DNA of 64,000 nucleotides from an uncultured Spirochaetota bacterium (GTDB lineage: Bacteria; Spirochaetota; Spirochaetia; SZUA-6; Fen-1364). Under the pieces are notes generated by a model. It had not been told where the DNA came from. It did not search any database and saw only the letters and a program-made list of their open reading frames with translations. The DNA is taken from NCBI GenBank assembly GCA_963733835.1, contig CAVTER010000015.1, positions 561,988-625,987 on the forward strand, in the 5' to 3' direction. Shown here in pieces: positions 35,989-52,919 of this stretch. The stretch's first letter is position 1. Each line of letters begins with the position of its first letter. The position numbers and the translations under genes were made by a program.

Positions 35989-36695
35989 GGGCGCGTCCCC
36001 GGCGCAGGCCTGCTGCCGAAGAGAGCCGTGCCCAGCCGCACCAGGGTGGACCCCTCCTCGATCGCGATCTCGTAGTCCCCCGACATGCCCATGGAGAGGG
36101 TGTCGAAGACGGGGGAGCCCAGCCGCGCGGCGCAGGTCTCGAACTGGCTGCGCAGCGCCGCGAAGGCGCGGCGGACCTCCGCCGCGTCCGGGGTCAAAGG
36201 GCCGACGGTCATCAGGCCCCGCACCCGCAGGCTGCCCAGCCCGGCGACGGGCTCCAGGTCGCGCAGCAGCTCCTCGGCGCTCCTGTAGCCCGACTTCGTG
36301 TCCTCCCCGCTCGTGTTGACCTCGAGAAGCACATCGATCACCGTGCCCCTCTCCGCCGCGCAGCGGGCAAGGGCCTGCGCGGTGTCCAGCCTGTCGATGG
36401 ACTGGACGCAGCCGAACAGCGCCGAGGCGGCGCGGGCCTTGTTCCTCTGCAGGTGGCCGATGAGGTGCAGCTCCCAGTCCCCCGCCAGCCCGGTGTACTT
36501 CTGCTCAGCTTCCTGGACCCGGTTTTCTCCAAACAGCCGCAGCCCCGCGGCCAACGCCTCCTCCACCGTGGAGGCGGGACATGTCTTCGTGACGGCCATC
36601 AGGCGCACGCCGTCCGCCGGGCGCCCGGCGCGGGATGCCGCGCCTGCGATCCTCCCTCGCACCTCCGACAGCCTGCCCGGCAGCGACTCTACCAC
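35985..36695 (-). CDS. yggS: YggS-family pyridoxal-phosphate homeostasis protein
   Basis: …RLMAVTKTCP…FGENRVQE… conserved blocks. GTG start preceded by GGTGAGGA. Confidence 0.8.
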   Translation of the reverse strand: MVESLPGRLSEVRGRIAGAASRAGRPADGVRLMAVTKTCPASTVEEALAAGLRLFGENRVQEAEQKYTGLAGDWELHLIGHLQRNKARAASALFGCVQSIDRLDTAQALARCAAERGTVIDVLLEVNTSGEDTKSGYRSAEELLRDLEPVAGLGSLRVRGLMTVGPLTPDAAEVRRAFAALRSQFETCAARLGSPVFDTLSMGMSGDYEIAIEEGSTLVRLGTALFGSRPAPGTRP

Positions 36696-37213
36696 GAGTG
36701 GGTCCTCACCGGCGGGTAGGCGCGCGCCACGGCCAGCGAGAGAGGAAGGCCCAGCACGATTCCCGCCGCGCTCTGCACAAGGTTCCCCGGCGCCTCGGCG
36801 AGCGCCGGGCCCAGCCCGATGAGAAGCGCCCCGCCCGCGAAGTACCCGGCGGCCATCACCGCCATCCCCACGACGCCGGCGAGCACGCCCACCACCACGC
36901 TCCTGGGCCGCACGCGGGCAATGAGCCCGATGACCAAACCCTGCAGGCCGTGCACAAGCAACGAGATGGGGGACCACTGGGCAAATCCACCGATCAGGTC
37001 CGCCAGGGCGGTTCCCACGCCCCCTGCGATCATCGCGGAGATCGGGCCAAAGGTGTAGGCGGCAAAGGCAATGGCAACATCCCCCAGGTTGAAGTACCCG
37101 CGCGCCGGGGAGGGGATGCGCACAAACAGCGTGAACGCGGCGGTGACGCCGGCGAGCACGGCAATCGTCGAAATCCTGAACGCCGGAGAATCCAGAGGGC
37201 TGTGTTCTTTCAT
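36689..37213 (-). CDS. ECF transporter S (substrate-capture) component
   Basis: 174 aa with 5-6 TM helices and Gly/Ala-rich faces. Directly downstream of EcfT and the A-A' ATPase. Confidence 0.6.
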   Translation of the reverse strand: MKEHSPLDSPAFRISTIAVLAGVTAAFTLFVRIPSPARGYFNLGDVAIAFAAYTFGPISAMIAGGVGTALADLIGGFAQWSPISLLVHGLQGLVIGLIARVRPRSVVVGVLAGVVGMAVMAAGYFAGGALLIGLGPALAEAPGNLVQSAAGIVLGLPLSLAVARAYPPVRTHSW

Positions 37214-37264: not shown

Positions 37265-38044
37265 TCAGGCCCGGACCAGCAGCACCGCGAGCAGGCACAC
37301 CGCCGACAGCCCCGCCGCGACCGCGAGGTCCGCCGCGAGGGCGCCCCCCCTCTTCAGCTCGGCGAAGGAGCTGCGCGGGTTGGGTCGGCCGAACCCCCGG
37401 GACTCGAGCACCATCGCGAGCACGGGAATGCCCTTGACGGCCTGGATGAGTACCGAGGTCAGGATGGGCAGGAAAGTCTTTGCCGCCCCCCGCCATGCGT
37501 GTCGGGCCCCCGAGGCAGGCCCGCAGCGCAGCCTGTGCGCGTCCTGGACATTCCTGTAGGTGGAGGCGAGAGACGGGAGGGAGCGGAACGCGATGATCAC
37601 CACCAGGCACGCCGAGTAGGGCAGGCCGAACCACCGCAGCGCGAGCACGAGGTCGTCGAGCTCGATGCTGCGGAAGGCGGCAAAGAAGGCGAGGCTGATG
37701 CCCCCGAAGCGCAGGATCATGGCCAGGGCAGCACGCAGCCCGCCGCCGGTCACCAGGGCGAAACCCCGCACGGCGAGCAGCACCGTGCCGCTCCTGTGGA
37801 ACAACGGCGTGAGAAGCGCGATCAGGATCAGCACTGGCAGGATCGGCCGCAGCGGCACCGTGAGCTCTGACGGGCCGAACGCCGCCCCGATGACACCCAG
37901 GAGAAACGCGACGAGGCAGGCGCTCACGACGACGGGAGCGGGGATCAGGAGGCTCACTGTCACCGGTGCGAGGAGGAGGAGCTTCGCGCGCGGATCGAAC
38001 CTGTGCAGGAAGCTCGTTCCCGGTTTGAAGAAATCCACCGCCAC
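37265..38044 (-). CDS. ecfT: ECF transporter transmembrane (T) component EcfT
   Basis: C-terminal section of ORF 37265-39517 (…FLHRFDPRAKLLLL… CbiQ-like). GTG start overlapping the ATPase stop. Confidence 0.65.
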   Translation of the reverse strand: MAVDFFKPGTSFLHRFDPRAKLLLLAPVTVSLLIPAPVVVSACLVAFLLGVIGAAFGPSELTVPLRPILPVLILIALLTPLFHRSGTVLLAVRGFALVTGGGLRAALAMILRFGGISLAFFAAFRSIELDDLVLALRWFGLPYSACLVVIIAFRSLPSLASTYRNVQDAHRLRCGPASGARHAWRGAAKTFLPILTSVLIQAVKGIPVLAMVLESRGFGRPNPRSSFAELKRGGALAADLAVAAGLSAVCLLAVLLVRA

Positions 38045-39517
38045 TACGGACCCACCCCGTGCGGGGAAGCAGGGGAGACGGAGTCCCCGACCAGCCGCCC
38101 GCCCTCCATCGACACCACACGGTCGCAGACACCGGCGGCGTACTGCGCGTCGTGCGTGATGAGCAGGACACACGGGATGCGCGCGCACAGCTCGCGCGTC
38201 AGGTCCGCGAGCTCCCGGAATGACAGTCCCGAATCCACCTCGTCGAGAATCAGCATGTCCCGTTCGAGAAGCCAGTACGTCGCGGCCTGCAGCCGTCGGC
38301 GCGCGCCGTAGCTCATGAGCGCCGGGCTGTGCCAGAAGATCGGGAAGCGCAAAAAGCCGTGCTGCCTCCCGGACGAGGTCCTCAGCCTCGCGCCTGCCGA
38401 CCCCCCTCATCGCGAGCCCGAGCCCCAGCTCCTCCTGCACCGTGGGCAGGTAGATCTGGTGATCGGGATTCTGGAACAGGTAGCCGATCCTCCTGTTGAG
38501 CTCCTCGCCCCTGGCCGGGCGGAACCCTCCCCCGTCGTTGAGGGCGACCACGCCCGCTCGTGGGGTGAGCAGTCCGCAGAGCACCTTCCCGAGTGTCGAC
38601 TTCCCCGACCCGTTGGGTCCCACCAGGCCGCACACCGTGCCTTTCTCGACCACGAGGCTTTCCACATCGAGGGTGAAGCCATCGGAGTCGGGGAAGCTGT
38701 ACCGGATTCCCTCCGCCTTCAGGAATGGATCGCCGGCTGGCCTGGGGCCGCGCGCCGCTCTCTGGCCTGCACCGACAGCGATGCCATGCTCGCGCAGCCC
38801 CGAGCGCAGCTGGTCCGTGACCGGGCGACCCGAGACAGAGGAGACGGTGCCGGCAGACAGGATTCCGAAGCTGTCGCCCCTCTCTTCGAGCAGGGCTGCC
38901 CACCGGGAGTCAAGCACGAGGGTGGTCCGGCCCCTGTCGCGCAGGATGTCCATGATCCGGACCTTCCAGTCCGCATCCAGCTCTTCGAGGGACTCGTCCA
39001 GTACCCAGACGGCTGGATCGATCGCGGCAAGGCAGGCGAGGAGCAGCCGCTTCTTCTCCCCGCCCGAGAGAGTCGAGGGGTTTCTCTTCGTGAACGCCGC
39101 CAGGCCGACAAGCCGGAGGCTCTCCTCGATTCTGCGGGCGATCTCACCGCGCGGCACCCCGAGGGATTCCAGGGCGAAGGCGACCTCCGTGTCGCAGCGC
39201 GTCGTGAAGACCTGGCTGTCGGAATCCTGGAACACCAGCCCGATCGCCTCGACGAGATCCCAGGGCTGTGCGGCGCACACGTCGATCGCGCCGCACCGGA
39301 TCGCCCCATCCCGATCCCCGCCTGTGAACCGCGGAACCAGACCCACGAGCATGCGCGACAGGGTGGTCTTCCCGGCGTCGGCCGCCCCGAGGAGCACGCC
39401 GGTCTGCCCTGCATCGATGCGGAAGGTGAGGCCTTCGAACAGGCACCGCGGCGGCTCGTTTCCAAGGGGCGGATATGTGAAGCGCAGCCCGTCGACGCGA
39501 AGATCTGTGCAGATCAT
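38044..39517 (-). CDS. ECF transporter fused tandem ATPase (EcfA-EcfA'); frameshift ~38330
   Basis: Two ABC ATPase modules (Walker A GAADAGKTT and GPNGSGKST, signatures LSGGEKKR and LSYGARRR, Walker B MLILDEV, H-loop ITHD). The last 100 aa are in ORF 38044-38352. Confidence 0.75.
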
Positions 39518-39640: not shown

Positions 39641-40834
39641 ATGACCATGGCGGGGATCGACGCACGCAAGAAGAAGGTGGTGGCGGATATCATCCGGCAG
39701 CTGCACGACGGGCTTGCCGTCGAGCAGGCGAAGGAGCGCATCCTGCGCGAGGTCGGCACGCTGAGCTCGGCGGACATCACCACGATCGAGCAGTCGCTCA
39801 TCGACGAGGGGGTGTCCCCCGACGAGATCAAGAGGTTCTGCAACGTGCACGCGCTCCTTTTCGAGGCGGCCCTCGAGGAGAAGGTGGCGACCCCCGAGTC
39901 CTCGTCGCACCCGGTCAACATGCTGCGAAGGGAAAACCGCGAGATCGAAACGCTCCTTGCCGGATTCAAGGCCGCCGTCCAGGAGCTTGCCGGCCCCGGG
40001 CGCGCGCATGCGCTGGCCGCCGTGAAGAGCCGCCTCGAGAAGCTGGCAGGCGTGGATACGCACTACGCCATCAAGGAGAACGCGATCTTCCCGTACCTCG
40101 AGAAAAACGGCTTCCCGGGGCCCTCCAAGGTCATGTGGGGAAAGCACAACGAGGTGCGCGCAATGATGAAGGACGCCTCTGCCGCGCTGGCCCGCGGCGA
40201 GGCGGACCCCGCGGCGCTCACCGCGCTGGCAACCGAGATCGAGGGGATGATCTTCAAGGAGGAGAACATCCTGTTCCCCGCCGCCCAGGAGCGCATCAGC
40301 GTGAAGGAGTGGGTCGAGATCCTCAAGGCCTGCGACGAGATCGGCTACCCGTACGTGCGCGGATCCGCGCTGCACGAGGCCCTCGTCGAAACGGGGAAGC
40401 TGGAGGAGCAGGCCGCGGCCCTCGGAGCGGGCGAGGTCGTCATGCCCAGCGGCAGGCTGTCGCTGGAGGAGCTGGTGTCCGCGCTCGACACTCTGCCCAT
40501 CGACATCACCTTCGTGGACGCCAACGACCGGGTCAAGTACTTCTCGCAGTCGAAGGAGCGGATCTTCGTCCGGGCAACGTCGGTGATCGGCAGGAACGTC
40601 GAGAACTGCCACCCGCCCCAGAGCGTCCACAAGGTCAAGGCCATCGTGGATGCCTTCCGGGCCGGAACCCGCGAGCACGCCGACTTCTGGATCCGGATGC
40701 ACGGCAGGTTCGTGTACATCCGCTACTTCGCCGTGCGCGGGGCCGAGGGCAGGTACCTGGGCACCCTGGAGGTGACGCAGGACCTCACCGAGATCATGAA
40801 GCTGGAAGGGGAGCGACGGCTCCTGGACGACTGA
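39641..40834 (+). CDS. DUF438 / hemerythrin-like plus PAS-like domain protein
   Basis: 397 aa. Architecture typical of DUF438 proteins commonly encoded next to NO/O2-detoxifying flavodiiron or hcp genes. Confidence 0.55.
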   Translation: MTMAGIDARKKKVVADIIRQLHDGLAVEQAKERILREVGTLSSADITTIEQSLIDEGVSPDEIKRFCNVHALLFEAALEEKVATPESSSHPVNMLRRENREIETLLAGFKAAVQELAGPGRAHALAAVKSRLEKLAGVDTHYAIKENAIFPYLEKNGFPGPSKVMWGKHNEVRAMMKDASAALARGEADPAALTALATEIEGMIFKEENILFPAAQERISVKEWVEILKACDEIGYPYVRGSALHEALVETGKLEEQAAALGAGEVVMPSGRLSLEELVSALDTLPIDITFVDANDRVKYFSQSKERIFVRATSVIGRNVENCHPPQSVHKVKAIVDAFRAGTREHADFWIRMHGRFVYIRYFAVRGAEGRYLGTLEVTQDLTEIMKLEGERRLLDD

Positions 40835-40861
40835 CAACCGCGGGCAGGAGGAGAGACGGTC

Positions 40862-42052
40862 ATGGTGACTGAGCTGGCGAAGGACGTCTTCTGGGTCGGA
40901 GTGGTGGACTGGGGCCTGCGCCACTTCCACGGCTGGGAGCTCTCCACGCATCGGGGCTCTACCTACAACGCCTACCTGGTGAAGGACAGGAAGATCGCCG
41001 TGGTGGACACCGTGTGGGGGCCTTTTGCCGACCGCTACATCGAGAACCTCCGCGAGGTGGTGGACCCCGCGCAGATCGAGTACGTGGTGGTGAACCACGC
41101 CGAGACCGACCACTCGGGCAGCCTGCCCGCGCTCATGCGCCTGTGCCCCGAGGCGACGGTGGTCGTCTCGCCGCGGGGAAAGGACAGCATCCCCGGGCAT
41201 TACCACCAGCAGTGGAAGCTGAAGGTCGTGAAGACCGGCGACTCGATCAGCCTGGGCGAGACCGAGCTGGTGTTCGTGGAGGCGCCGATGCTGCACTGGC
41301 CCGACAGCATGTTCACCTACGTCAAGGGGCGCAGCCTCCTGCTGTCCAACGACGCCTTCGGTCAGCACTACGCCACCTCGATGCGCTTCAACGACCAGGT
41401 GGACCAGGAGGAGCTGTACGAGGAAGCGGTGAAGTACTACGCCAACATCCTCACCCCTTTCAGCGAGCTGGTGCTCAGGAAGATCGACGAGGTGGTGGGC
41501 CTCAAGCTGCCCCTGGACATGATCTGCCCCAGCCACGGCGTGATCTGGCGCAGGGATCCCCTGCAGATCGTCACCGCCTACCAGCGGTGGGCCAGGCAGG
41601 AGCCCGCGCGCTCCGCGGTCATCCTGTACGCAACGATGTGGGAAGGGACCGGACGCATGGCGGGGGCGATCGGCACGGGGCTCGCCCGGGCCGGGGTTCC
41701 CTACAAGATCTTCAACATGGGAACGACGGACAGGAACGACGCGATCAAGGAGCTGTTCAAGGCCAGGGCGGTCCTCGTGGGGTCACCGACAGTGAACAGG
41801 GGGCCCCTGGCGACGCTGATGCCCGTGCTCGAGGACATGCGGGGGCTTCGCTTCAAGAACAAGATCGGCGCGGCCTTCGGCTCCTTCGGGTGGAGCGGCG
41901 AGGCCCTGGGCCTGCTGGAGGAGCACCTGAAGGCGGCGGGCATCCCCCTCGCAGCGCCGGGGGTCAAGGCCCCCTGGCAGCCCTCCACGGCCGACCTGGC
42001 GGCGTGCGAGGCGCTGGGCGCGGCGGTGGCGAAGGAGATCCTGAAAGCCTGA
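40862..42052 (+). CDS. Flavodiiron protein (A-type flavoprotein, FprA/NorV-like without rubredoxin domain)
   Basis: N-terminal MBL-like di-iron domain (HAETDHSG) plus C-terminal flavodoxin domain (AVILYATMWEGTGRMA). Confidence 0.85.
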   Translation: MVTELAKDVFWVGVVDWGLRHFHGWELSTHRGSTYNAYLVKDRKIAVVDTVWGPFADRYIENLREVVDPAQIEYVVVNHAETDHSGSLPALMRLCPEATVVVSPRGKDSIPGHYHQQWKLKVVKTGDSISLGETELVFVEAPMLHWPDSMFTYVKGRSLLLSNDAFGQHYATSMRFNDQVDQEELYEEAVKYYANILTPFSELVLRKIDEVVGLKLPLDMICPSHGVIWRRDPLQIVTAYQRWARQEPARSAVILYATMWEGTGRMAGAIGTGLARAGVPYKIFNMGTTDRNDAIKELFKARAVLVGSPTVNRGPLATLMPVLEDMRGLRFKNKIGAAFGSFGWSGEALGLLEEHLKAAGIPLAAPGVKAPWQPSTADLAACEALGAAVAKEILKA

Positions 42053-42066
42053 GCGGGTCCGGGGCC

Positions 42067-42237
42067 TTCAGCCCTGGCGCACGCCCCTGCCGTCCTCGCC
42101 GGTGGGGGCGTCCTTTTTCCGCGGCCCCTTGTACAGCTTGACGACCCAGTAGGCAAACCACAGGAGCGAGAAAAGCAGCGGGACGCCGACGATCACGATC
42201 TTGAGAAAGGCGGGGCTCACGGACTCACAGTAGCCCA
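42067..42237 (-). CDS. Small membrane protein (56 aa), hypothetical
   Basis: Hand-translated MGYCESVSPAFLKIVIVGVPLLFSLLWFAYWVVKLYKGPRKKDAPTGEDGRGVRQG*, single TM. Below the ORF-track length cut-off. Confidence 0.3.
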
Positions 42238-42305
42238 TCGCGGGCGCGCGTTCAACCCGGCACCGCCCTTTGCCCTCCGGGCTGATCCGGCGCTACATTG
42301 TGTGC

Positions 42306-42566
42306 ATGAGGAAGATGCAGGACGCTGACGGGGCACGGGTCGGGGTGTTCGACGTGAACGGCGCCACATGCCCGTCGTGCGCCTTCACGATCGAGCGGGC
42401 GGGCCTGCGGGTACCCGGCGTCAGCGACATCCGCGTGGACGTCAACTCCCGAGAGATCCGCGTCCGCTACGACGGCAGCCCCGCGGCCCTCGACGGGGTG
42501 AAGGACATCGTCCGGCGGCTTGGCTACCTCGCCACTCTCAAGTCCAGCGGGGCTCCCGGGGCGTGA
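42306..42566 (+). CDS. Heavy-metal-associated (HMA) domain protein, CopZ-like
   Basis: GATCPSCA metal-binding loop in a ferredoxin-like approximately 70 aa fold. The ORF-track start at 42270 is TTG; ATG at 42306 preferred. Confidence 0.55.
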   Translation: MRKMQDADGARVGVFDVNGATCPSCAFTIERAGLRVPGVSDIRVDVNSREIRVRYDGSPAALDGVKDIVRRLGYLATLKSSGAPGA

Positions 42567-42612: not shown

Positions 42613-43143
42613 TTACAGCTTGTAGAGAACCCCGATGCCGTAGTTCGAGGCCCAGCCGACGTAGCCGTAATCCAGCAGGAGGAACAGCTTCGGGTTGAGC
42701 TTCCACGCGAGGCCGTTGAACGAGGCGAAACCGAAGTTGACGCCGCTCCAGCCCCAGTAGGTGCCGGTGGTCCCATAGACCCCGAGGCCGAGGGAGACGT
42801 ACACGTCGAACTCCAGCGACTTGCCGAAATTGAACCCCGTGTGAAGGCTGGCAAGCGGAGCAACGCCCCAGTCCACCCACCCACCGCCGATGAAGAGCGG
42901 GAGCTGGACCACGCCCCTGCCCATGATACCCCACTCGAAGGGCATCGGGCCGAGGTTGAACTTCCCGACCACGTACTCGGCTCCCACCCCGAGGCTCAAT
43001 CCCGAGTAGCCGTACAGGCCAACCGAGCCGTACAGGTTCACATTGCCCGGCTTGTGGAAAGCCGCGAACGGGGCATCGGCGAATGCGCCGACAGCGCCGG
43101 CCAGCAGCAGCACTGCAACCAGCACGACAACAATTCTCTTCAC
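42613..43143 (-). CDS. Small outer-membrane beta-barrel protein (OmpW/OmpA-N-like)
   Basis: AAGGAGG RBS plus GTG start. Signal peptide VKRIVVVLVAVLLLAGAVGAFA, then alternating aromatic/Gly beta-strands ending …GIGVLYKL. Confidence 0.6.
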   Translation of the reverse strand: MKRIVVVLVAVLLLAGAVGAFADAPFAAFHKPGNVNLYGSVGLYGYSGLSLGVGAEYVVGKFNLGPMPFEWGIMGRGVVQLPLFIGGGWVDWGVAPLASLHTGFNFGKSLEFDVYVSLGLGVYGTTGTYWGWSGVNFGFASFNGLAWKLNPKLFLLLDYGYVGWASNYGIGVLYKL

Positions 43144-43238: not shown

Positions 43239-44206
43239 TCAATAGGTCCTGTGCAGCAGCCGGTCCGCCACCGCGTGCAGCGTCCGCCGCGCCCCGGTGT
43301 CCGGCGAGCCGGGCGATCTCGCGCAGCGACCTCTCGGTGTACGCCCTCGCGAGGCGGCGCGCGCCCTCCAGGCTCCCCCTCTCGGAGATCATCCCGACGA
43401 TGCCCGCCAGGCGCTCCGCCGTGTAGGGAGGATCGGCGAGCGCCGCGGCGAGGCTCCCGTCGTCGGCGCGCAGCCCGAGGACCACGGGGAGGGTGAAGAT
43501 GCCCTGCGCGAGGTCGGACCCCGTCGGCTTGCCCGTCTCCGCCGCCGTGCCCTCGAAGTCGAGGATGTCGTCGATGATCTGGAACCCCATGCCGAGGCTG
43601 TAGCCCAGCCTGACCAGCGTCTCCCGGACACCGGGGTCGCACCCGCTCTCGCGGGCGCCGACGTGGAAGCTCAGGGCGAAGAGCACGGCGGTCTTCCCGG
43701 CGATCGTGCGCAGGTAGCGCCGCAGGCTGGGGTCGACCCGGTAGCGGTCGCCAGCCTGGCGTATCTCGCCCGCGCAGATCTGTGCCACGAGCGCGGCCAT
43801 CGCCCGGGCAGTCCCCATGTCCGCGAACTCGGCGACGAGGGAGAAGGCGGCGGCGAACAGCCAGTCGCCCGTCAGGACAGCGGCCTTGTTGCCCGCGAGC
43901 GCGTGCAGCGTCTGGATGCCCCTGCGCACGGAGGCCTCGTCGATGATGTCGTCGTGCACGAGGGTGGCCAGGTGCAGCATCTCGACGGCCGCCGCGGCAC
44001 GACGCACGCGCCCGGATCCGGCGCGCCGAAGCTCGCGGCGAGCAGCACGAAAGCGGGCCGCAGCATCTTGCCATTCGACTCCACCAGCCGGCGCACGGCG
44101 GCCGCCACGGGGCCGTCGCCGCCTCCCGTCCTCGGGAGACGATCTCCCCGCGCACGCGCTCGAGCAGGTCCGACAGCTCCGGGTGGCCTTCCCAGAAGCT
44201 CCGCAT
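43239..44206 (-). CDS. Polyprenyl (hepta/octaprenyl) diphosphate synthase, DmkB/HepT-like; 3 frameshifts
   Basis: Both aspartate-rich motifs (LVHDDIIDEA, FQIIDDILDF). N-terminus MRSFWEGHPELSDL… and native-looking C-terminus …EIARLPDTGARRTLHAVADRLLHRTY* recovered in shifted frames. Confidence 0.75.
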
Positions 44207-44209
44207 CGG

Positions 44210-46144
44210 CTATTTCTTTTTCTTCTTCAGCGTCGGCTCGTCCACGTAGAGGTAGGTGCGCTGGGCAAGGCGCGTCCCGTTCCACCACTTCTGCAGCCAG
44301 GGCATGACCCAGTGGTCCAGCCCGAAGCCCCTGCCTGCCCCGCCGATCATGACGAGCGAGACGGCGATGTACCACAGGATCTCCTTGCCCGCCATGGCCC
44401 CGAGCAGGAACATGATGCTCAGGCCGATGGAAACGACGGCGGCGACCGCGGTGAAGAGGCCGCCCACGAGCGCGAGACCGATGAGGACCTCGGCGAGGAC
44501 GATCACGACCTGGAAGAAGAAGGGCGCCTTCGAGACCAGCGCGTCCACCAGCCAGGTGTACAGCCCGGCCGGCTGGCTCAGAAGCGCAGCCCCCGCGCCG
44601 CTTGCGGCCGCCGCGGAGGCGGCAGCCGTCGCGTCGGCAGCCTGGGCCACCGCGGCTGTGGCCGCCGCGGTCGCATCGGCGGCCTGCACCGCCGCCCCGG
44701 TGGCCGCGGCTGTCGCTTCCGCCGCCCCCTCGCCCCACCCCGCTGCCGAGGCCGAGGCAGTGCCCTCCGTGGCGATGATGAAGATCTTCCCGGGCGTCAG
44801 CCACCCCTTGGTGATCTTGCCGATGCCCTCGATCAGCCACATGACTCCGAGGAACACGCGCAGGACGGCCATCCAGTACCCGCGGGTGTTTGCAGCCGCG
44901 AGGCTGCCGAGCACGGAACGCCCGTTCTTGATGTCGAGGAACTCGTGCTTCAGGTACTCCCAGACCTGGTTGATCCCCGCAACGCCGAGGAAGTGGATCA
45001 CGTTGATCAGGTGCTTCGAGGCGATGGCAAAGATGCCCGTCAGCGGGATGCCCAGGACGTGCGCGACGCCCCAGCCGGCGCCCAGGGACACCATGTTGCC
45101 GTGGTAGCTCGAGCGGAAGGCCTTCTTCGGGGTGTCCTCGATCTCGGCGACGATGTTGTGCGCGGCGGTGTCGGCCGTCTGGACGGCGGTCTCGACGATC
45201 TGCGGCAGCATCTTCTCGCCCTCGGTGAAGCACACCACGTCCCCGACCACGTACACGTCGGGGTAGTCGGTGGTCTGCATGAACTCGTTGGTGTGCAGTC
45301 TCCCGTGCCTGCGCGCGATGGAGAGGCGCAGGCTCGAGGCGAACTTGCAGGCCTTGATCCCCGCTGTCCAGATGAATGTCTTCGTGGCGATGCTGCCCTT
45401 GCCCCCCAGCAGCACCTTGCCCGGCTCCGCTCCGGTGATCGGCGTGCCGAGGAGGAACTCCACTCCCCTCCTCTCGAGGTAGCGGCGGGCCTTCTTCTGC
45501 AGCTTCTCGGGCATGGTGGGAAGGATCTTGTCGACTGCCTCGATCACGACGATGCGGACCTCGGAGGGGTCGATGCCGTGGTCGCGGCACAGCTGCGCGC
45601 GCCAGTCCTTCAGCTCGCCGGCCAGCTCCATGCCCGTGAATCCCGCTCCCGCGATCGCGAAGGTCAGCAGCTCGGCCCGCTTCGCGGGGTCGGTCTGCTT
45701 GGAGGCCTGGCTGACCATGTCGTGGATGTGGCGGCGGATCGCCACCGCCTCGCCGAGGGACCACAGCGTGAAGGCGTTCTCCTTGATCCCGGGGATGTCG
45801 TAGAACTCCGGCTCGGCGCCCACGCCGATCACGAGGTAGTCGTAGGGGTATTCTCCCACGCTCCCGACCAGCTTACGGGCCTTGAAGTCGATGGTCGTGA
45901 TCCTGTCGGTGACGAGCGTGACCTTCTTGCCGCCGAAGATCTTGCGGAAGCTGATCTCCACGGCCCCCGGCTCCACGCGGCCACCGGCAACCTCGTGCAG
46001 CTCCGTCATGAAGGTGTGGTACGGGTTCTTGTCGACAAGGATGATCTCTATGTCACGGCGCTTCTTCAGCTTCCTGTACAGGCCCTTGACGGCCTCCACG
46101 CCGCCGTAGCCGCCGCCAAGTACAACGATGCGCGTGTGTGTCAT
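44210..46144 (-). CDS. ndh: Type-II NADH dehydrogenase (NDH-2) with about 240 aa C-terminal Ala/Thr-rich linker plus 2-3 TM extension (Ndh2-like)
   Basis: Two Rossmann motifs (VVLGGGYGG, IAGAGFTGMELAGEL). The C-terminus has the low-complexity AAEATAAATGAAVQAADATAAATAAVAQAADATAAAS segment and hydrophobic helices. Stop is 4 nt from the polyprenyl synthase start. Confidence 0.8.
   Translation of the reverse strand: MTHTRIVVLGGGYGGVEAVKGLYRKLKKRRDIEIILVDKNPYHTFMTELHEVAGGRVEPGAVEISFRKIFGGKKVTLVTDRITTIDFKARKLVGSVGEYPYDYLVIGVGAEPEFYDIPGIKENAFTLWSLGEAVAIRRHIHDMVSQASKQTDPAKRAELLTFAIAGAGFTGMELAGELKDWRAQLCRDHGIDPSEVRIVVIEAVDKILPTMPEKLQKKARRYLERRGVEFLLGTPITGAEPGKVLLGGKGSIATKTFIWTAGIKACKFASSLRLSIARRHGRLHTNEFMQTTDYPDVYVVGDVVCFTEGEKMLPQIVETAVQTADTAAHNIVAEIEDTPKKAFRSSYHGNMVSLGAGWGVAHVLGIPLTGIFAIASKHLINVIHFLGVAGINQVWEYLKHEFLDIKNGRSVLGSLAAANTRGYWMAVLRVFLGVMWLIEGIGKITKGWLTPGKIFIIATEGTASASAAGWGEGAAEATAAATGAAVQAADATAAATAAVAQAADATAAASAAAASGAGAALLSQPAGLYTWLVDALVSKAPFFFQVVIVLAEVLIGLALVGGLFTAVAAVVSIGLSIMFLLGAMAGKEILWYIAVSLVMIGGAGRGFGLDHWVMPWLQKWWNGTRLAQRTYLYVDEPTLKKKKK
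44600..44760 (-). repeat. Imperfect in-frame tandem repeats encoding an Ala/Thr-rich linker inside ndh2
   Basis: gccgccgcgg…ggcggc(c/a)tg(g/c)…accgc repeated units translate to AAVQAADATAAAT / AAVAQAADATAAAS. Confidence 0.5.
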
Positions 46145-46261: not shown

Positions 46262-47443
46262 ATGCGCCTTTTCCGCGGTTTTTGGCTCTGTCCGGCCATG
46301 TCCCTCGCCGTCTGCCTCCTCGCCGCCCCGGTCCCTGTCGCCGCGCGGGGAACCGCGGAGCAGCCGCGGTCACGGACCGAGGTCGGGCTGCTGGGCACTT
46401 CGTGCACCATCACCATCTACGGCGGGTACTCGGAAGCCGCCCTCGATGCCTCCTTCGCCCGCATCGCGCAGATCGAGCAGCGCATGACGGTGAACAGGGA
46501 GGACAGCGAGGTCGTCAGAGTGAACCGGGAAGCCGGAAAGCGTCCCGTCCAGGTGTCGGCCGACACCTTCGCGGTCATCTCCCGGGGCCTTGAGATCTCG
46601 CGCGCGGGTAACGGCGCCTTCGACATCACCGTCGGGCCGCTCGTGAAGCTCTGGGGCATCGGGACGGCCGCGGCCCGCGTCCCGTCAGCCGCCGAGATCC
46701 GCCGCGCACTCGCGCTCGTGGACTGGCGCGGCGTGACCCTGTCGCAGGCCGACTCCTCGGTGTTCCTCGAGCGGAAGGGAATGGCACTCGACCTGGGAGC
46801 GATCGCCAAGGGCTACGCGGCCGACGACGCCGTCCGCATCCTGCGGGAGCACGGGGTGAACAGCGCGCTTGTCGACCTGGGCGGCAACGTCCTCACCCTC
46901 GGCGCCAAGCCCGACCGGTCCCCCTGGAAGATCGGCGTGCAGAACCCCGAGGAGCCGCGCGGCACGCACATCGGGATCGTCGACGTCGGCGAAACGGCCG
47001 TGGTGACCTCGGGATCCTACGAGCGGTTCTTCGAAGCGGGCGGCCGGCGCTACCATCACCTCCTGGACACAACGACCGGCGCTCCCGTGGACAACGGCCT
47101 GACGGCGGTCATGATCATCTCGGCCAGCTCCACGACCGCGGACGGCTGGTCCACCCTCGCATTCGCTCTCGGCCTCGAGCGCGGTCGGGCAATGGTCGAG
47201 GGGTCGAAGGGAGAGGTGGAGGCGCTTTTCATCACGAAGGCCCGTGACGTTTTCGTGACGCCGGGGCTTCGAAAGCGCTTCCGGCTCGACAGACCCGCGC
47301 TTCACGCTCAGGGAGTGACGGGCCCCCCCGCCTGCCGTGGGGCCTGCCAGCGGCACACCCTGCGCTGCAGCGCGTCGATGAGCAGGAACAGGAGCAGCCC
47401 GGCCAGCCCGAGGGCGAGGATGCCCGCATACATGTCAGGATAG
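46262..47443 (+). CDS. apbE: ApbE-family FAD:protein FMN transferase (FmnB-like), secreted
   Basis: Signal peptide plus ApbE blocks (…LDLGAIAKGYAADDAV…, …TSGSYERFF…HHLLD…). The in-frame stop is at 47443, but the last approximately 45 codons look non-native and overlap the convergent permease. A +1 shift would end at ~47309. Confidence 0.8.
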   Translation: MRLFRGFWLCPAMSLAVCLLAAPVPVAARGTAEQPRSRTEVGLLGTSCTITIYGGYSEAALDASFARIAQIEQRMTVNREDSEVVRVNREAGKRPVQVSADTFAVISRGLEISRAGNGAFDITVGPLVKLWGIGTAAARVPSAAEIRRALALVDWRGVTLSQADSSVFLERKGMALDLGAIAKGYAADDAVRILREHGVNSALVDLGGNVLTLGAKPDRSPWKIGVQNPEEPRGTHIGIVDVGETAVVTSGSYERFFEAGGRRYHHLLDTTTGAPVDNGLTAVMIISASSTTADGWSTLAFALGLERGRAMVEGSKGEVEALFITKARDVFVTPGLRKRFRLDRPALHAQGVTGPPACRGACQRHTLRCSASMSRNRSSPASPRARMPAYMSG

Positions 47444-48093
47444 GCAAGCCGCATCCAGCTTTCGACGACGAAGTATCCCAGCCCCCGACGCGTCCCGAAA
47501 GTCTCCGCGAAGAACAGGACCGCCAGTGCCGTCCCTGTTCCCACGCGCAGGGCGGACAGCACCTGCGGCAGCACGGCCGGCCAGGTCACGAAGCGCGCAG
47601 TCTGCCATCTGTTCGCGCCCAGGGAGCGAAGCGAGACGAAATACTGTCCCGGGATGTCCCTTGCCGCGTCGCGGACCGACACCAGGACCTGGAAGAACAG
47701 CACGAGAAAGACGATCGACACTTTGGACGCGTCAGCAAGTCCGAACAGCAGCATGACGACGGGCAGGAGCGCGATCTTCGGCACGGGGTACAGGAGGTAG
47801 GTAGCGGGCGAGAGCGCCCTCCCGACTGCACGCGAACGGCCCATGACAAGACCGAGCGGTACCGCGGTCAGCAGGGCGAGGGCCAGCCCCGCGGCGATCC
47901 GGGCGAGGCTCGAAAGGGCGTGCAGGCCAAGGAGCCGGGGCGCAAGCTCGACGAAACGGAGAAGAACCGGCCAGGGGCCTGGAACCACAACCCCACCCGT
48001 GGCGACCGACAGGAGCCACCAGGCAGGAAGTAAGGAGAGAGCAACCGCAATTCCAGCCAGATTCCACTTGAATCTGTATCTTTCAGTGCTCAT
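47308..48093 (-). CDS. ABC transporter permease (NitT/TauT / SsuC family)
   Basis: 6 TM helices and EAA-like loop region. Start MSTERYRFKWN at 48093. Confidence 0.75.
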   Translation of the reverse strand: MSTERYRFKWNLAGIAVALSLLPAWWLLSVATGGVVVPGPWPVLLRFVELAPRLLGLHALSSLARIAAGLALALLTAVPLGLVMGRSRAVGRALSPATYLLYPVPKIALLPVVMLLFGLADASKVSIVFLVLFFQVLVSVRDAARDIPGQYFVSLRSLGANRWQTARFVTWPAVLPQVLSALRVGTGTALAVLFFAETFGTRRGLGYFVVESWMRLAYPDMYAGILALGLAGLLLFLLIDALQRRVCRWQAPRQAGGPVTP

Positions 48094-48838
48094 TTGGGAC
48101 AACCCTGTGCTTTTCCAGTGAACTTCGTATCTTTCTCTCAAGCTCGAAGAAATCACTTGAAGTTCTGAACCCACGCGATCCTCTCCCAGGATTTTCGAAA
48201 TGCTCCACGATCCGTGCCGGCCTGCCAGCAAGCAGGGAAATGGAGTCGCCAAGGAACGCCGCCTCCTCAATGCTGTGTGTCACGACCACGCAGCTCACGG
48301 GGCGCTCCCGTAGCAGGCCCACGAGCAGGTCCTGGAGCGTTTCCCGGGTCATCGCGTCCAGTGCCGAGAAAGGCTCGTCCAGGAGCAGCAGGTGAGGCTG
48401 AAGGGAAAGACTCCTTGCGATGGCGAGTCTCTGCTGTTCGCCCCCGCTGAGCTCGGCGGGAAAGCTCCCCGCGCGGCTGGAGAGCCCGACATGGCCGAGC
48501 AGTGCGGCTGCGGCAGCCATCCGCTCGCGCCTCCCCGCGCCCCTGATCCGCAGGCCGAGGGCGGCGTTTTCCGCCGCAGTGAACCAGGGGAAGAGACCGT
48601 ACTGCTGGTGCACCAGGCTGATCCGCGTGTCCCCCGCGGCGACTGCTGACCCATGGAGCAGGGCATCGCCCGCGTCCGGGGCCTTCAGCCCGGCGGCGAC
48701 CACCAGGAGCGTGGTCTTCCCGCATCCAGAGGGCCCGATGATGCACTCGGTACGGCCCGCGGGGACCTGGATCGAGACACCCTCGATGACCCGCCCCCTG
48801 CCGGGATAGGAGGCACAGAGGTCACGGAGTTCGAGCAT
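48083..48838 (-). CDS. ABC transporter ATP-binding protein (NitT/TauT family)
   Basis: Walker A GPSGCGKTT, signature LSGGEQQR, Walker B LLLLDEPFSALD. Confidence 0.85.
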   Translation of the reverse strand: MLELRDLCASYPGRGRVIEGVSIQVPAGRTECIIGPSGCGKTTLLVVAAGLKAPDAGDALLHGSAVAAGDTRISLVHQQYGLFPWFTAAENAALGLRIRGAGRRERMAAAAALLGHVGLSSRAGSFPAELSGGEQQRLAIARSLSLQPHLLLLDEPFSALDAMTRETLQDLLVGLLRERPVSCVVVTHSIEEAAFLGDSISLLAGRPARIVEHFENPGRGSRGFRTSSDFFELERKIRSSLEKHRVVPNEH

Positions 48839-49766
48839 TGCCGCTTACGAAGGAGCCGAGGACGATGTCGTCCCACGCCGGGAGCTTTTCGATGAGCCCC
48901 TTCTGTTTCATCCACGACGCCACGTCCGCCACGTCGGCAGCCGTCGGCACAAAAGCCCGTCGGTACCGGGGGAACCGAAGGCTCTCGCGCACGGAGGCGG
49001 GAAACTCGCATCGCAGGGCGACCGGAGTGCGAAAGGCGTCGGGCCGGGCATGCAGGTCGGCCACAGCACGGTCGTAGGCGCGGTAGAAAGCGGCGATCTC
49101 CGCCGGCTTCTCGGCGAGCGCCCTGCCCGTGAAGAGGATGACTCCCACCGTCCGGTCGAGCCCGGAAGAGTCGGCCAGGAGTCGCGCGCCCCGCTGCACG
49201 GCTGCCGTCGAAAGCGGCTCTGGGAGGCACGCTGCCTCCACCTGGCCTGCCAGCAGCATCTCCATGCGCACGGGCACCTGCACGATGGGCACGAGCTGCA
49301 CGGAGGCGGGATCGGCCCCGGCTGCCTGCAGGAGCCGCTCGGTGACGTAGAACACGATGCTCGCCTCCAGGAGCCCCGTGGGCACTTTCCGCGTCCCGAC
49401 GGCCTTCCAGCCGGCGAGATCGCCCAGCGCCGATCTCGGCGCGGCGAGCAGCCCGAAGTCCCCCTGCGACGCCGAGGTCACCATGGTGCCGGCGCTCCGG
49501 TTCCACCCCTGGATGGCGTTGATGAGGTCGGAAACCGTCCCGTCGATCGCGTTCGACTGCAGCGCGGCCTCCCTGTACATCTGGCTCTGGAACAGGGTGA
49601 GCGTCACCCGGACTCCCTCGGCCTCGAAGTACCCCCTCTCCTCGGCAGCCACGAGGGGCGCTGAGTTGAGCGCGGGCATGAGGCCGACTGCAAGGTCTGC
49701 GCGGGCGGAGGCGGCCGCGACCAGCGCGGCGAGGGAGCAGGCAAGGAGTCTTTTCACCGGGGACAC
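48822..49766 (-). CDS. ABC transporter periplasmic substrate-binding protein (NMT1/THI5-like, NitT/TauT family)
   Basis: GTG start, signal peptide, SsuA/ThiY-like fold indicators. Confidence 0.65.
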   Translation of the reverse strand: MSPVKRLLACSLAALVAAASARADLAVGLMPALNSAPLVAAEERGYFEAEGVRVTLTLFQSQMYREAALQSNAIDGTVSDLINAIQGWNRSAGTMVTSASQGDFGLLAAPRSALGDLAGWKAVGTRKVPTGLLEASIVFYVTERLLQAAGADPASVQLVPIVQVPVRMEMLLAGQVEAACLPEPLSTAAVQRGARLLADSSGLDRTVGVILFTGRALAEKPAEIAAFYRAYDRAVADLHARPDAFRTPVALRCEFPASVRESLRFPRYRRAFVPTAADVADVASWMKQKGLIEKLPAWDDIVLGSFVSGNARTP

Positions 49767-49767
49767 C

Positions 49768-50691
49768 TCATGGGCGGGGCAGGAGCCAGGCGGCGCAGTA
49801 CAGCGCGCCGTACACCAGGTGGTGAAGCATGACCAGGGGAATCAGAGAGCGGGGACGCTGCAGGTGGCGGACGACGACCAGGGTCGCCGGGACGGCCGCG
49901 GGCATCGCGGCCAGCGTGAGCCAGGGGCGCGGGAAAAGACCCGCCGCGGCCAGGACCCAGGGACCGGCATAGGCCAGCAGGAGGAGGGAGACGTACAGAC
50001 CCGCGGCGGCCCGGTAGCCGATGCGCACGCTCAGCGTCCGGATCCCGTGGCGACGGTCGGCACCGAAGTCACGGATCTCGTTCGTCAGCAGGATCAGAGA
50101 CACCAGGATGCTCACCGGGATCGAGATCCACAGGGCGGGGACCGAGAGAACCCCCGCTGTCGCGTAGTAGGAGCCCTCCACCATCAGCACGCCCATGAGG
50201 AAGAAGACAAACGCCACGCCGAGGCCGCGGCGCTTGTAGTTGAACGGCTCCCCGGTGTAGAAGTACCCGCCGACAAAACCGACCGCGCCCAGGGCGACGA
50301 GCCCCCACCCCGTCCGCCACGCGAGGAAAAGGCCGACGGGCGCCACCAGCGCGAAACAGGCCAGCCCCGACAGGAAGATGAACCACTCCAGCGCGTCCCG
50401 CTCGGCACCGAACACGGCGAGGTGCGCGATCTTGTCGTCAAGTCTCCGCTGCTTGAACTCGAAGAAGTCGTTGACCAGGTTCACGCCGGCCTGCAGGGCG
50501 ATGCCGGCCGCGAGCACGAGGACCGAGTGCAGGAGGCTGCCCCGGCCGTCCCGCCAGGCCAGCGCCACCCCCAGGAAGCACGAGAAGGCGGCGATGACCA
50601 GCGAGGCGGGCCGCAGGGCCTTCACCCACGCCCGTAACGTGCGGGCATCGAACGCTGTCCGCGCGAGGGCGGGGATGCTCGGCAGGGTCAT
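49768..50691 (-). CDS. UbiA-family prenyltransferase, MenA paralog (DmkA-like 1,4-dihydroxy-2-naphthoate polyprenyltransferase)
   Basis: 8-9 TM helices. Asp-rich prenyl-diphosphate motif (GVNLVNDFFEFKQRRLDD) and a second D-rich region. ATG verified at 50691. Confidence 0.75.
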   Translation of the reverse strand: MTLPSIPALARTAFDARTLRAWVKALRPASLVIAAFSCFLGVALAWRDGRGSLLHSVLVLAAGIALQAGVNLVNDFFEFKQRRLDDKIAHLAVFGAERDALEWFIFLSGLACFALVAPVGLFLAWRTGWGLVALGAVGFVGGYFYTGEPFNYKRRGLGVAFVFFLMGVLMVEGSYYATAGVLSVPALWISIPVSILVSLILLTNEIRDFGADRRHGIRTLSVRIGYRAAAGLYVSLLLLAYAGPWVLAAAGLFPRPWLTLAAMPAAVPATLVVVRHLQRPRSLIPLVMLHHLVYGALYCAAWLLPRP

Positions 50692-50755
50692 GACGGGAGA
50701 ACAGTAGCAGAATCGAAAGCGCGGCGCAAGAAAACCGCGACGGCCGAGGCGGGAG

Positions 50756-51392
50756 CTACCAGAGGGGGTGCGGCCTGAGCAGGGTGTACACGAGCGCGGC
50801 CCAGGGGACGGCCACGATGGCGAGAAGCGCCAGCGCCCCGGCCCACGTGGTGCGGCTGGCCAGCGCATCGTGCGGCCCCTGGTCCTCGGCCCCCGCCTGC
50901 ACCTCTTCCAGGAGCCGGTCGATGCTGCCGATCAGGTCCCTGCGCTCGACCTTCGCGCGCAACCCCATGATCCGCTGGAAGTAGAAGAGCGATCTGCCTA
51001 TCAGCCCGCCCACGCGGCCCGGGATCTGCAGGTCCTCGCGCAGGCTGAACTGGGATATCGCGATCATCCCGACCAGCGCGGTAGCCTTGGCCACGCCGTT
51101 TCGCAGCGCCGCCTCCGTGATCGGCCTGCCGGCCACGGTCAGGAGGACCCTGCCCGTCGGGACAAGGAGGTTGAAGAGCACGATCCCCACGGTGACGACG
51201 ATCGTCTGCACAGCCCGGACCCTGCGGCCCCCTGCCGCATTCAGGCCGATGAAGAACAGGATCTCCAGCGCGCGGATACCCGCGTCCTGCTGGAAGAGGA
51301 ACGCCGGCAGAAGGAGCGCTCCCGCGGCGAACAGCGCGCGGGCGGACACAGCGCCCCGCAGCAGCCCGCCGCGCGGGGGCCGCGTGCCGCTC
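50756..51392 (-). CDS. EcfT-like polytopic membrane protein (FmnA-type candidate), hypothetical
   Basis: GTG start overlapping the stop of the upstream Gx transporter (GTGA). About 212 aa with 4-5 TM helices and an EcfT-like loop (…GRPITEAALRNGVAKATALVGMIAISQFS…). Confidence 0.45.
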
Positions 51393-51960
51393 ACAGCCGC
51401 TCCCGGAGCGCGGCCAGCCACCGCGACCTGGCGCTGAACCGCTCCGCGAAGACTCCCAGGAGCGCCGCGGTCGCCGTCCCGAGGGCGAGAAACGGCGGCG
51501 CGATGAGCCACGCCCCCTCCCCGAAGATGAGGAGGCGTGCCAGCACGACCTGGGAGGCGTTGCTGAACAGGGCCCCCAGGACGCTCACTCCGAGCAGCGA
51601 GACCCGGGTCTTGAGCAGGCGTCGGGCCGCGAGCATGGCCAGGCCGCTCGCGAAGGACCCCACGGCCGAGAAGAGGAAGACGTACGAGACGAGGGTCCCG
51701 CTCACCAGGCCCTGCCCGACCACCTTCAGGAACACGACGCCCAGGACGGCCGACGCCGGCAGCAGGTCAACGGCCAGGAGGATCGGCAGGTTCGCGATGC
51801 CCACGCGCAGGAAGGGAACCGGCTTGGGAATCAGGAACTCCAGCGTGGAGAGGAACAGGCACAGTGCGCCCAGGAACGCCACGAGGTCCTGCCGGCCGGA
51901 CAGCCTGCCCGGCAGGAGGCCGACTTCTTCCGACCGGACCGCCCTACCAGGAGCTGTCAT
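51391..51960 (-). CDS. Gx transporter family protein (Pfam Hpt_synt_1 / ECF-S-like, EetB-type)
   Basis: 189 aa, 5 TM helices, motif …LEFLIPKPVPFLRVGIANLPILLAV… Overlaps the upstream NusG-II gene by 17 nt. Confidence 0.6.
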   Translation of the reverse strand: MTAPGRAVRSEEVGLLPGRLSGRQDLVAFLGALCLFLSTLEFLIPKPVPFLRVGIANLPILLAVDLLPASAVLGVVFLKVVGQGLVSGTLVSYVFLFSAVGSFASGLAMLAARRLLKTRVSLLGVSVLGALFSNASQVVLARLLIFGEGAWLIAPPFLALGTATAALLGVFAERFSARSRWLAALRERL

Positions 51961-52309
51961 CGAGCTTCTCCCCCGTTGTGCCGCGCACCCGCACGAAGAC
52001 CCTGTTCGGCAGGCAGGCGATCCACTGCCCCGGTTTCGACACGGCAGCCATGGCGACGCAGAGCTTGTCGGGGCACGGCGAGTCCACGACGCGGGCCCCG
52101 CCCGCGTCAATGACAACGATCGTGTCGCCCAGTGGACCTGCAACGGGCAGGCGGCGCTCCGCCGAGAGAGGGTATATCCATTGCTTTCCAGAGGCCTCCA
52201 CCACGACGTCGCCTGCCCGGGAGGGTCCCGCGTACGCGAACCACGCGGAGGTCCCCACCACGACGGCCGAGAGGATGATCGCGAGGTAGTCGAACAGCCG
52301 CAGCTTCAT
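51944..52309 (-). CDS. NusG-domain-II (DUF1312) single-pass membrane protein
   Basis: 121 aa. N-terminal TM helix, then a beta domain with the signature SPCPDKLCVAMAAVSKPGQWIACLPNRVFVRVRG. The longer ORF start (MPRGTLFF…) merely translates the upstream terminator hairpin. Confidence 0.7.
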   Translation of the reverse strand: MKLRLFDYLAIILSAVVVGTSAWFAYAGPSRAGDVVVEASGKQWIYPLSAERRLPVAGPLGDTIVVIDAGGARVVDSPCPDKLCVAMAAVSKPGQWIACLPNRVFVRVRGTTGEKLDDSSW

Positions 52310-52321
52310 CGGCGCATTCCC

Positions 52322-52353
52322 CGGCAAAAAAAAGAGGGTGCCGCGAGGCACCC
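52322..52353 (-). terminator. Rho-independent terminator downstream of tRNA-Val
   Basis: On the minus strand, GGGTGCC-TCGC-GGCACCC hairpin followed by T8. Confidence 0.7.
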
Positions 52354-52358
52354 TGAAA

Positions 52359-52433
52359 TGGGCGGCACAAGAGTTGAACTTGTGACCCCTAGCGTGTCGA
52401 GCTAGTGCTCTAACCAGACTGAGCTAGCCGCCC
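52359..52433 (-). tRNA. tRNA-Val (anticodon GAC)
   Basis: Hand-folded cloverleaf: acceptor GGGCGGC/GCCGCCC, D-arm GCTC-AGTCTGGTTA-GAGC, anticodon arm CTAGC-UCGACAC-GCTAG, 5-nt variable loop, T-arm ACAAG-TTCAACT-CTTGT, discriminator A. Position 33 is C (unusual). Confidence 0.7.
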
Positions 52434-52529
52434 CGGACGGCAGTCCGACCGTGCCGCAAAAATAGCCAAAGACTCTGCCGCTGTCAAGCCGGCGGCACCT
52501 CCTGTGCCCCTGGCAGGCGCGGCGTCGCC

Positions 52530-52919
52530 TCAGCGCGCCGTGAAGTCCCCCGGCTGGATGAACACGATGGTCGAGGAACCGCGCACGTCCATCGAAAGAA
52601 AGGAGATCGCATCGCGGAACCGCTTCACCTTGTACACGTAGGTGATGGGAGGGTCCAGCCTGCGCAGGGCAGCGTTCGTCGGTTTCCAGGACTCGATGAC
52701 GAAAGTCCAGGTGTCGCCCTTCTCTGTGAGCACGCCGGAGAACACGGCAGTTCCATCAGAGGACTCGCGCTGGAGGCGGAACGCCCCTCGCGAGAAGGAA
52801 AGCGTGTCGGTCAGGTCGGTGCTCTGCCAGCTCCATGCGCGCGTGTACACCGTGCCCGCGCAGGACGCCAGGAGCAGCACGGTCGCGGCAACGGCTGTCA
52901 GCAGGACATTCCTCTTCAT
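52530..52919 (-). CDS. Lipoprotein, hypothetical
   Basis: 129 aa, signal peptide with lipobox LLLASC. Confidence 0.5.
   Translation of the reverse strand: MKRNVLLTAVAATVLLLASCAGTVYTRAWSWQSTDLTDTLSFSRGAFRLQRESSDGTAVFSGVLTEKGDTWTFVIESWKPTNAALRRLDPPITYVYKVKRFRDAISFLSMDVRGSSTIVFIQPGDFTAR

Follow-up and report, generated by a model that had tools for sequence, protein, structure and literature searches.

The eetA-eetB-X operon

A 64-kb stretch of DNA from an uncultured Spirochaetota bacterium (hereafter the window; G+C content 68.8%) carries on its reverse strand three overlapping genes for small membrane proteins, which we refer to as eetA, eetB and X. The first, eetA (51944..52309; 121 amino acids (aa), ATG start), encodes a NusG_II protein of family PF07009, the second, eetB (51391..51960; 189 aa, ATG start), a 'Gx' protein of family PF07456, and the third (50756..51394; 212 aa, GTG start) a membrane protein, X, which resembles a divergent and shortened form of EcfT, the T subunit of energy-coupling factor (ECF) transporters. 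The start of eetB overlaps the stop of eetA by exactly 17 nucleotides (nt), and X and eetB overlap in the sequence GTGA, which comprises the GTG of X and the TGA of eetB. The coordinates, both overlaps and the position of the genes after a tRNA-Val gene and its terminator had been given exactly in the initial annotation of this DNA, and its view of the genes as translationally coupled is likewise supported. The GC contents at the three codon positions of the X open reading frame (ORF) are 0.72/0.49/0.92, and the third-position value of 0.92 indicates that all three ORFs are coding. By codon-position GC, the in-frame upstream extension of the X ORF to 51511 is non-coding.

The identities of the first two products, as initially annotated, were confirmed by profile searches. 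EetA scored 77.4 bits with PF07009 (gathering score 29.6; E = 1e-21), and its relatives in the PDB are 4esn_A (E = 8e-9), Lin0431 (2kpp/3ld7) and Aquifex NusG domain II. Residues 1–28 of EetA form a hydrophobic segment, which is its single N-terminal membrane anchor. EetB, which is polytopic here, scored 115.3 bits with PF07456 (gathering score 30; E = 3e-33), a family that is also named Hpre_diP_synt_I or 'Gx transporter'. In the survey of Rivera-Lugo et al. (2023, PMC9973259), eetB homologues were defined as PF07456, and its Data Set S1 gives the label EetA to PF07009 proteins. By family membership, the NusG_II and Gx proteins are EetA and EetB, the pair already described for the flavin-based extracellular electron transfer (EET) system of Listeria. 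Listeria EetB, for which an ECF-S-like structure is predicted, binds flavin adenine dinucleotide (FAD) and is needed for FAD export and for flavinylation of PplA; both processes also need FmnA, an ECF-T paralogue, and EcfA/A' (PMC9973259). The initial annotation had described the NusG_II/Gx association as conserved but without a settled function; this description holds for the role of EetA alone, since the pair is published as EetA/EetB and Listeria EetB binds FAD and is needed for its export. In the same survey, eetB was colocalised with eetA in 3,328 and with apbE in 2,169 of 4,214 genomes, and a recognisable ECF-T gene was found beside eetB in only 291 of them (PMC9973259).

The synteny of the triplet was analysed in the window and 45 related loci (numbered with the prefix L), which were scanned with hidden Markov models (HMMs) built in this analysis. 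The loci came from exact-protein look-ups, at least three Spirochaetia/Spirochaetaceae contigs of metagenome-assembled genomes and 36 metagenome contigs. The metagenome loci were found with a close alignment of X (A1), so the co-occurrence figures mainly describe the close Spirochaetia branch. The initial annotation had proposed co-occurrence as a check, and the triplet proved to be recurrent: among the 42 X genes for which upstream sequence is available, 40 are directly preceded by eetB (in one case as a fusion), and eetA precedes eetB at every locus whose contig reaches far enough. At 32 of the 39 unfused junctions, eetB and X share an [A/G]TGA start/stop overlap. An ApbE or UbiA gene is found downstream of the triplet in related loci, and ApbE accompanies the triplet even at loci without the quinone genes (L002, L029-L031 and L043). 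The eetA-eetB-X arrangement is thus conserved far beyond chance.

The two exceptions are L008 (10001-10642) and L009 (10001-10639), in which an X-like gene (28–30% identity) stands alone directly after rpoA-rplQ, with a TP_0593_N-domain gene adjacent, in Treponema-like genomes. In Firmicutes, the slot after rpoA-rplQ is occupied by ecfA-ecfA'-ecfT. In Treponema pallidum, the uncharacterised TP0214 follows rplQ, and TP1032 is a highly expressed NusG domain II protein (PMC8525777).

Likeness of protein X to EcfT

X has 56 close homologues of ~212 aa, and in an exhaustive profile search (E ≤ 1e-3) its family comprised 784 clusters at 50% identity. When 115 X relatives were scanned singly, 16 matched CbiQ (PF02361; best E = 2e-4), which was the only Pfam family matched by more than two of them, and no unrelated family was assigned to the product of 50756-51392. 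Comparison of the X profile with 39 spirochaete EcfT sequences by hhalign gave 155 collinear columns at E = 0.002, and an EcfT HMM aligned with many X proteins in a consistent register (EcfT 20–125 to X 15–115). For X, two AlphaFold2 (AF2) models of moderate confidence (pLDDT 64 and 71) have one common topology: three helices at the N-terminus are followed by a β-hairpin that leads into a long helix, then by a pair of cytoplasmic amphipathic helices and by a transmembrane helix at the C-terminus. In Foldseek searches of the PDB, EcfT/CbiQ chains exclusively occupied ranks 1–9 for model 1 and ranks 1–11 for model 2 (prob 1.0–0.69, TMq 0.43–0.59), and the later matches had prob ≤0.13. In predicted fold and topology, X is therefore like the group II EcfT/CbiQ proteins (PF02361; 4HUQ_T, 5D3M_D and 8BMS_C). 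It also shares with EcfT a weak collinear sequence similarity and the property of pairing or fusing with an S-like subunit.

The fusions became apparent from the lengths of the X relatives. Among the best 150 X-family representatives, 29 are 271–442 aa long, and 9 of the 10 long relatives tested consist of an N-terminal PF07456 domain fused to a C-terminal X. The C-terminal half of the EetB-X fusions is unrecognised by Pfam, so standard annotation reads them as long EetB proteins. Fusions of EetB to ECF-T or ECF-A domains have been described, e.g. WP_021725833.1 (PMC9973259), and by Rosetta-stone logic the EetB-X proteins are comparable to them, as an S-like EetB and a T-like domain are joined in one polypeptide. 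Data Set S1 of the same study lists an unannotated 212-aa gene of Marispirochaeta aestuarii with five transmembrane (TM) segments and a 4-nt eetB overlap (NZ_MWQY01000004.1_194), and a 370-aa 'EetB' with nine TM segments from Sphaerochaeta sp004294855 (SHOI01000026.1_2). Judging by length, position and TM count, the former is probably X and the latter probably an EetB-X fusion, neither recognised as such. Several X homologues are labelled 'heptaprenyl diphosphate synthase' in JGI data, a name that most likely derives from the legacy name of PF07456 and KEGG K00805 and was passed on through EetB-X fusions.

Several results weigh against an assignment to EcfT. No Pfam family matched X even at E ≤ 10, the gathering score of PF02361 was not reached, and NCBIfam contained nothing that matched it. 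PDB sequences searched with the X profiles A1 and A2 gave chance matches to short helices only. The hhalign comparison with the 39 spirochaete EcfT sequences had a probability of only 14%, and no significant alignment was obtained when the X profile was compared by hhalign with just the one EcfT of the window. The Foldseek E-values were modest (5e-3), and residues 121–178 of the model, which include the cytoplasmic helices that would contact the ATPases, have pLDDT values of only 44–54.

A further difference concerns ATPase docking. In ECF transporters, the coupling helices dock into EcfA/A' through two conserved Arg motifs, which sit at the helix ends. These motifs, AHRLR and ESRG, are invariant in our alignment of 39 spirochaete EcfT sequences (A3) and are present in the canonical EcfT of the window, whereas the X alignment contains no invariant Arg equivalent to either of them. 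X retains only a basic patch at residues 141–152 and an invariant D159. In a global hhalign alignment, which is of low confidence, gaps or a linker of X stand opposite both Arg motifs, and the shortening of X by ~50 residues falls in the coupling-helix half. X thus differs from EcfT in scoring below the Pfam threshold, in its length, in the missing AHRLR and ESRG motifs and in having no ATPase genes next to it.

Taken together, the CbiQ matches of the relatives, the profile comparison, the predicted fold and the EetB-X fusions point to X being a remote relative of EcfT, ~50 residues shorter; given the weak profile signal, we regard it as EcfT-like and not as a certified EcfT. The initial description of the third product as EcfT-like is upheld to this extent by the CbiQ matches of its relatives and by Foldseek, but not by Pfam thresholds or the Arg motifs. 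If the assignment is right, the gene after eetB in Spirochaetia encodes a cryptic EcfT-like protein that has been overlooked by Pfam, NCBIfam and the PMC9973259 survey, and X would supply the 'missing' T subunit for part of the eetB-containing genomes that lack a recognisable ECF-T. With a profile of the X family, several hundred clusters that at present carry the label 'hypothetical' or, mistakenly, 'heptaprenyl diphosphate synthase' could be better annotated. X would also be a natural test case of whether the ATPases are still required by an EcfT scaffold that lacks the Arg motifs for docking.

A putative flavin exporter and its source of energy

The genes downstream of the triplet suggest its function. 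X is followed by a gene for a DmkA-like (MenA-type) UbiA prenyltransferase (49768..50691, − strand; PF01040, E = 2e-23), for which the best NCBIfam matches were models of 1,4-dihydroxy-2-naphthoate polyprenyltransferase, although none of them reached its equivalog cut-off. Further downstream, apbE (~46262..47443, ends uncertain, + strand) encodes an FmnB-like FAD:protein FMN (flavin mononucleotide) transferase (PF02424, E = 1e-95) with a signal-like N-terminus (MRLFRGFWLCPAMSLAVCLLAAPVPVAARG), and its position and orientation recur in related loci. The next gene (44210..46144, − strand) encodes a 644-aa Ndh2-like type II NADH dehydrogenase (Pyr_redox_2, E = 5e-39) with a C-terminal membrane domain (hydrophobic segments in residues 531–595). 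It is followed by a gene for a DmkB-like polyprenyl diphosphate synthase (~43240..44206, − strand; PF00348, E = 3e-54), which is frameshifted in the assembly. By family, seven of the eight component types of a Listeria-type EET locus are present when X is counted as the analogue of FmnA; the PplA type was not found. This is most likely an EET/flavinylation cluster in Spirochaetia, and the ApbE, DmkA-like, DmkB-like and Ndh2-like neighbours make the initially proposed link to EetB/FmnA-type flavin export an apt one.

The window also contains a complete EcfAA'-EcfT-RibU module, ~11 kb downstream of the triplet and on the − strand. It comprises a fused ecfA-ecfA' ATPase gene with two ABC_tran domains (38044..39517), a canonical 259-aa ecfT (37265..38044; CbiQ, E = 1.5e-18; PDB 4hzu_T, E = 6e-11) and a gene for a 174-aa RibU-like ECF S component (36689..37213; PF07155, ECF-ribofla_trS, E = 8e-28). 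The ATPase at 38044-39517 had initially been regarded as solitary and as a possible shared energiser of the triplet. It is not solitary, being followed by the genes for an EcfT and a RibU-like S component of the same module. Its role as a shared energiser is made plausible by the recurrent linkage of the two units in at least four independent loci: an ECF A-A'(-T) module lies 0.5–11 kb downstream in the window, in L004 and L039, probably in L036 and in the contig of a close relative.

The ecfA-A' gene is frameshifted near 38324-38346, as its length of 1474 nt, not a multiple of three, reflects. The frame changes inside the second ABC domain, where the signature-like MSYGARRRL and the Walker B sequence LILDE do not share the reading frame that encodes the N-terminal 400 residues, and the homologue from L039 aligns to the gene of the window in frames −1 and −2. 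In dmkB (43306-44156), the tblastn alignment with the homologue from L001 splits between frames −3 and −2, and uvrA (~26711-28980) is also split between reading frames. As dmkB and uvrA are split as well and the ecfA-A' gene of a close relative is intact (490 aa), the frameshifts in all three genes are probably indel errors of the assembly. Decay of the pathway was considered as the cause of the ecfA-A' frameshift and judged less likely on the same two grounds.

The kind of system is already known; what is new is the phylum and an unrecognised family of shortened T-like subunits. Extracytoplasmic flavinylation by ApbE-type enzymes depends on FAD export, and to our knowledge the only characterised FAD exporter that serves extracytosolic flavinylation is EetB-FmnA-EcfAA' of Listeria, whose EET locus was reportedly described by Light et al. 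in 2018. The EetA (PF07009) and EetB (PF07456) families are common to Listeria and the window, and in both an ECF-T-like third membrane subunit is encoded alongside them. Both also have ApbE/FmnB, DmkA-like and DmkB-like proteins, an Ndh2 with a C-terminal membrane domain, and a separate RibU-EcfT-EcfAA' importer whose ATPases could be shared. The two systems differ in the third subunit: FmnA has high sequence homology to characterised T subunits (PMC9973259; compared here by description only), whereas X is unseen by Pfam and NCBIfam, lacks the Arg motifs and has 212 aa, T subunits otherwise having ~260 aa. They also differ in that the host of the window is a diderm spirochaete, so the target compartment would be the periplasm, and in that only the window has an NMT1-type ABC (ATP-binding cassette) importer embedded in the cluster and lacks a PplA-like gene. 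If the comparison holds, the Listeria-type EET and flavin-export module extends to a diderm phylum.

For this organism, we infer the substrate, the direction of transport, the physical complex and the sharing of ATPases as follows. EetB would be the ECF-S-like, FAD-binding subunit, its binding and export of FAD being carried over from Listeria EetB, and X would be the T-like membrane scaffold that pairs with it, in a role like that of FmnA in Listeria. The 4-nt start/stop overlap would fix the proportion in which EetB and X are produced through translational coupling. EetA would be a membrane-anchored accessory protein with its NusG_II domain probably facing the periplasm. EetB-X would export cytosolic FAD into the periplasm, and the exported ApbE of the cluster would draw on this FAD for the covalent linkage of FMN to redox proteins there. 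These flavinylated proteins would receive electrons from the Ndh2-like dehydrogenase and from a quinone, presumably of the demethylmenaquinone type, made by the DmkA-like and DmkB-like enzymes. The energy would most likely come from EcfA-A' of the ECF-RibU module, common to importer and exporter as in Listeria. We consider the flavin-export reading of EetB-X as a whole to be probable; the chance that EcfA-A' is shared and energises it is, in our estimate, a little below even.

Some observations speak against these proposals. Deletion of eetA in Listeria had no EET phenotype (PMC9973259). No PplA-like or FMN_bind protein and, in a regular-expression search, no flavinylation motif was found in the window. 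Two of the genes invoked, ecfA-A' and dmkB, are frameshifted in this assembly, and the absent Arg motifs of X count against energisation by EcfA-A' in particular. The last point leads to an alternative in which EetB-X is a two-component flavin translocator that is independent of ATPases. X would then be a relic of EcfT that has lost the coupling to EcfA-A' but still provides the membrane platform for toppling of the S subunit, and the driving force would be the FAD gradient or the capture of FAD by ApbE or EetA in the periplasm. This would agree with the loss of both Arg motifs and of ~50 residues in the coupling-helix half, and with the gene content of the loci: none of the 45 examined has an ATPase gene inside the operon, many have no ECF ATPase in the sequence at hand, and the X subgroup that stands alone after rplQ has no ATPase nearby. 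However, X keeps two cytoplasmic amphipathic helices and a conserved basic patch, an ECF A-A' module recurs a few kb downstream, and export in Listeria requires EcfA/A' (PMC9973259). Most of the contigs are also so short that a shared ATPase encoded farther away would have escaped notice. We therefore regard ATPase independence as unlikely. Its broadest form, in which X represents a widespread unannotated 'mini-EcfT' family of at least 784 clusters at 50% identity that acts with EetB as an ATPase-independent S-T flavin exporter, is somewhat less likely still. If true, the mini-EcfT proteins and the lone X-like genes after rplQ could be the missing route of FAD to the periplasm in spirochaetes, including pathogens that depend on periplasmic ApbE/Ftp.

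Two further explanations depart from flavin export altogether. EetB-X could serve the import or salvage of flavins or of a different cofactor, as a second S/T pair on a shared ECF module. In favour of this, every ECF transporter with a characterised structure is an importer, the architecture of PF07456 proteins is that of S components (PMC9973259), and the direction of transport cannot be read from sequence. However, the window already has a RibU-like importer S component with a canonical EcfT of its own, the triplet is tied to an exported ApbE, which needs extracytosolic FAD, in nearly all loci, and the genetics in Listeria demonstrate export (PMC9973259), all of which makes import improbable. 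X could alternatively be a quinone- or isoprenoid-related membrane protein that works with the DmkA-like prenyltransferase, as the JGI name of several homologues and the UbiA-family gene after X in most close relatives would suggest. The name is, however, most likely a carry-over from PF07456/K00805, the triplet lies beside ApbE with neither UbiA nor polyprenyl synthase in the five loci named above (L002, L029-L031 and L043), and the fold and profile evidence favours EcfT. A function of X as a prenyl- or quinone-related enzyme was rejected on these grounds, and we give this explanation hardly any weight.

Flanking genes and transcription of the operon

Between dmkA and apbE, the cluster contains the genes of an ABC importer (47308..49766, − strand; assigned by Pfam), namely an NMT1/THI5-like binding protein with a signal peptide (49766..48822), an ATPase (48838..48083) and a permease (~48270..47308). 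The importer is kept at this place in L001, L003-L005, L016-L022 and other loci. One may speculate that it takes up a quinone precursor, e.g. 1,4-dihydroxy-2-naphthoate (DHNA). The gene after dmkB (window 42613-43140, − strand; L001 18411-18968) is conserved and encodes a protein of ~177–185 aa without a Pfam match. With its signal peptide, high content of Gly and aromatic residues and C-terminal YKL or FKL, the product resembles a small outer-membrane β-barrel. In the window, the gene shares the reading frame of the dmkB ORF, and no stop codon separates the two. The interval between the EET cluster and the ECF module (39620-42566, + strand) encodes a DUF438-hemerythrin-PAS protein, a flavodiiron-type protein (ODP metallo-β-lactamase and flavodoxin) and a small HMA-domain protein, and these three genes recur at the same place in L001 and in the JGI 3300075153 contig.

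Upstream of eetA lie, in this order on the − strand, a promoter, a tRNA gene and a terminator. The sigma-70-like promoter (52459..52487, TTGACA-17-TATTTT; 10 of 12 matches, 0.0 expected from shuffles) was the only promoter-like site found in 50500-52700. It is followed by tRNA-Val (GAC) (52359..52433), which was identified by ARAGORN and, in a local scan of 500 nt, by Rfam RF00005 (62.4 bits). A whole-window Rfam search at gathering thresholds gave no matches, with the tRNA-Val itself also missed, and is hence not usable as evidence against riboswitches. The intrinsic-terminator-like element (52325..52354; AGGGTGCC-TCGC-GGCACCCT) consists of a hairpin (52354..52335) of eight pairs, six of them G-C, and a run of eight T residues (T8). 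The distance from the end of T8 to the ATG of eetA is 15 nt. In L003 (8955-9125), an equivalent hairpin and T-run are separated from the eetA ATG by 5 nt, and TTGACA...TATTTT is found upstream of tRNA-Val as in the window. The order of promoter, tRNA-Val, terminator and eetA is thus kept between the two loci, and tRNA-Val lies just 5' of eetA in L005 as well as in L003. As 15 or 5 nt after the T-run leave no space for a promoter of its own, transcription of the eetA-eetB-X operon may start at the tRNA promoter and read through the terminator. Upstream of tRNA-Val, a lipoprotein-like ORF of 129 aa (52530-52919, − strand; MKRNVLLTAVAATVLLLASCAG...), which has no Pfam match, is kept at the same position in L003 (67% identity) and L005.

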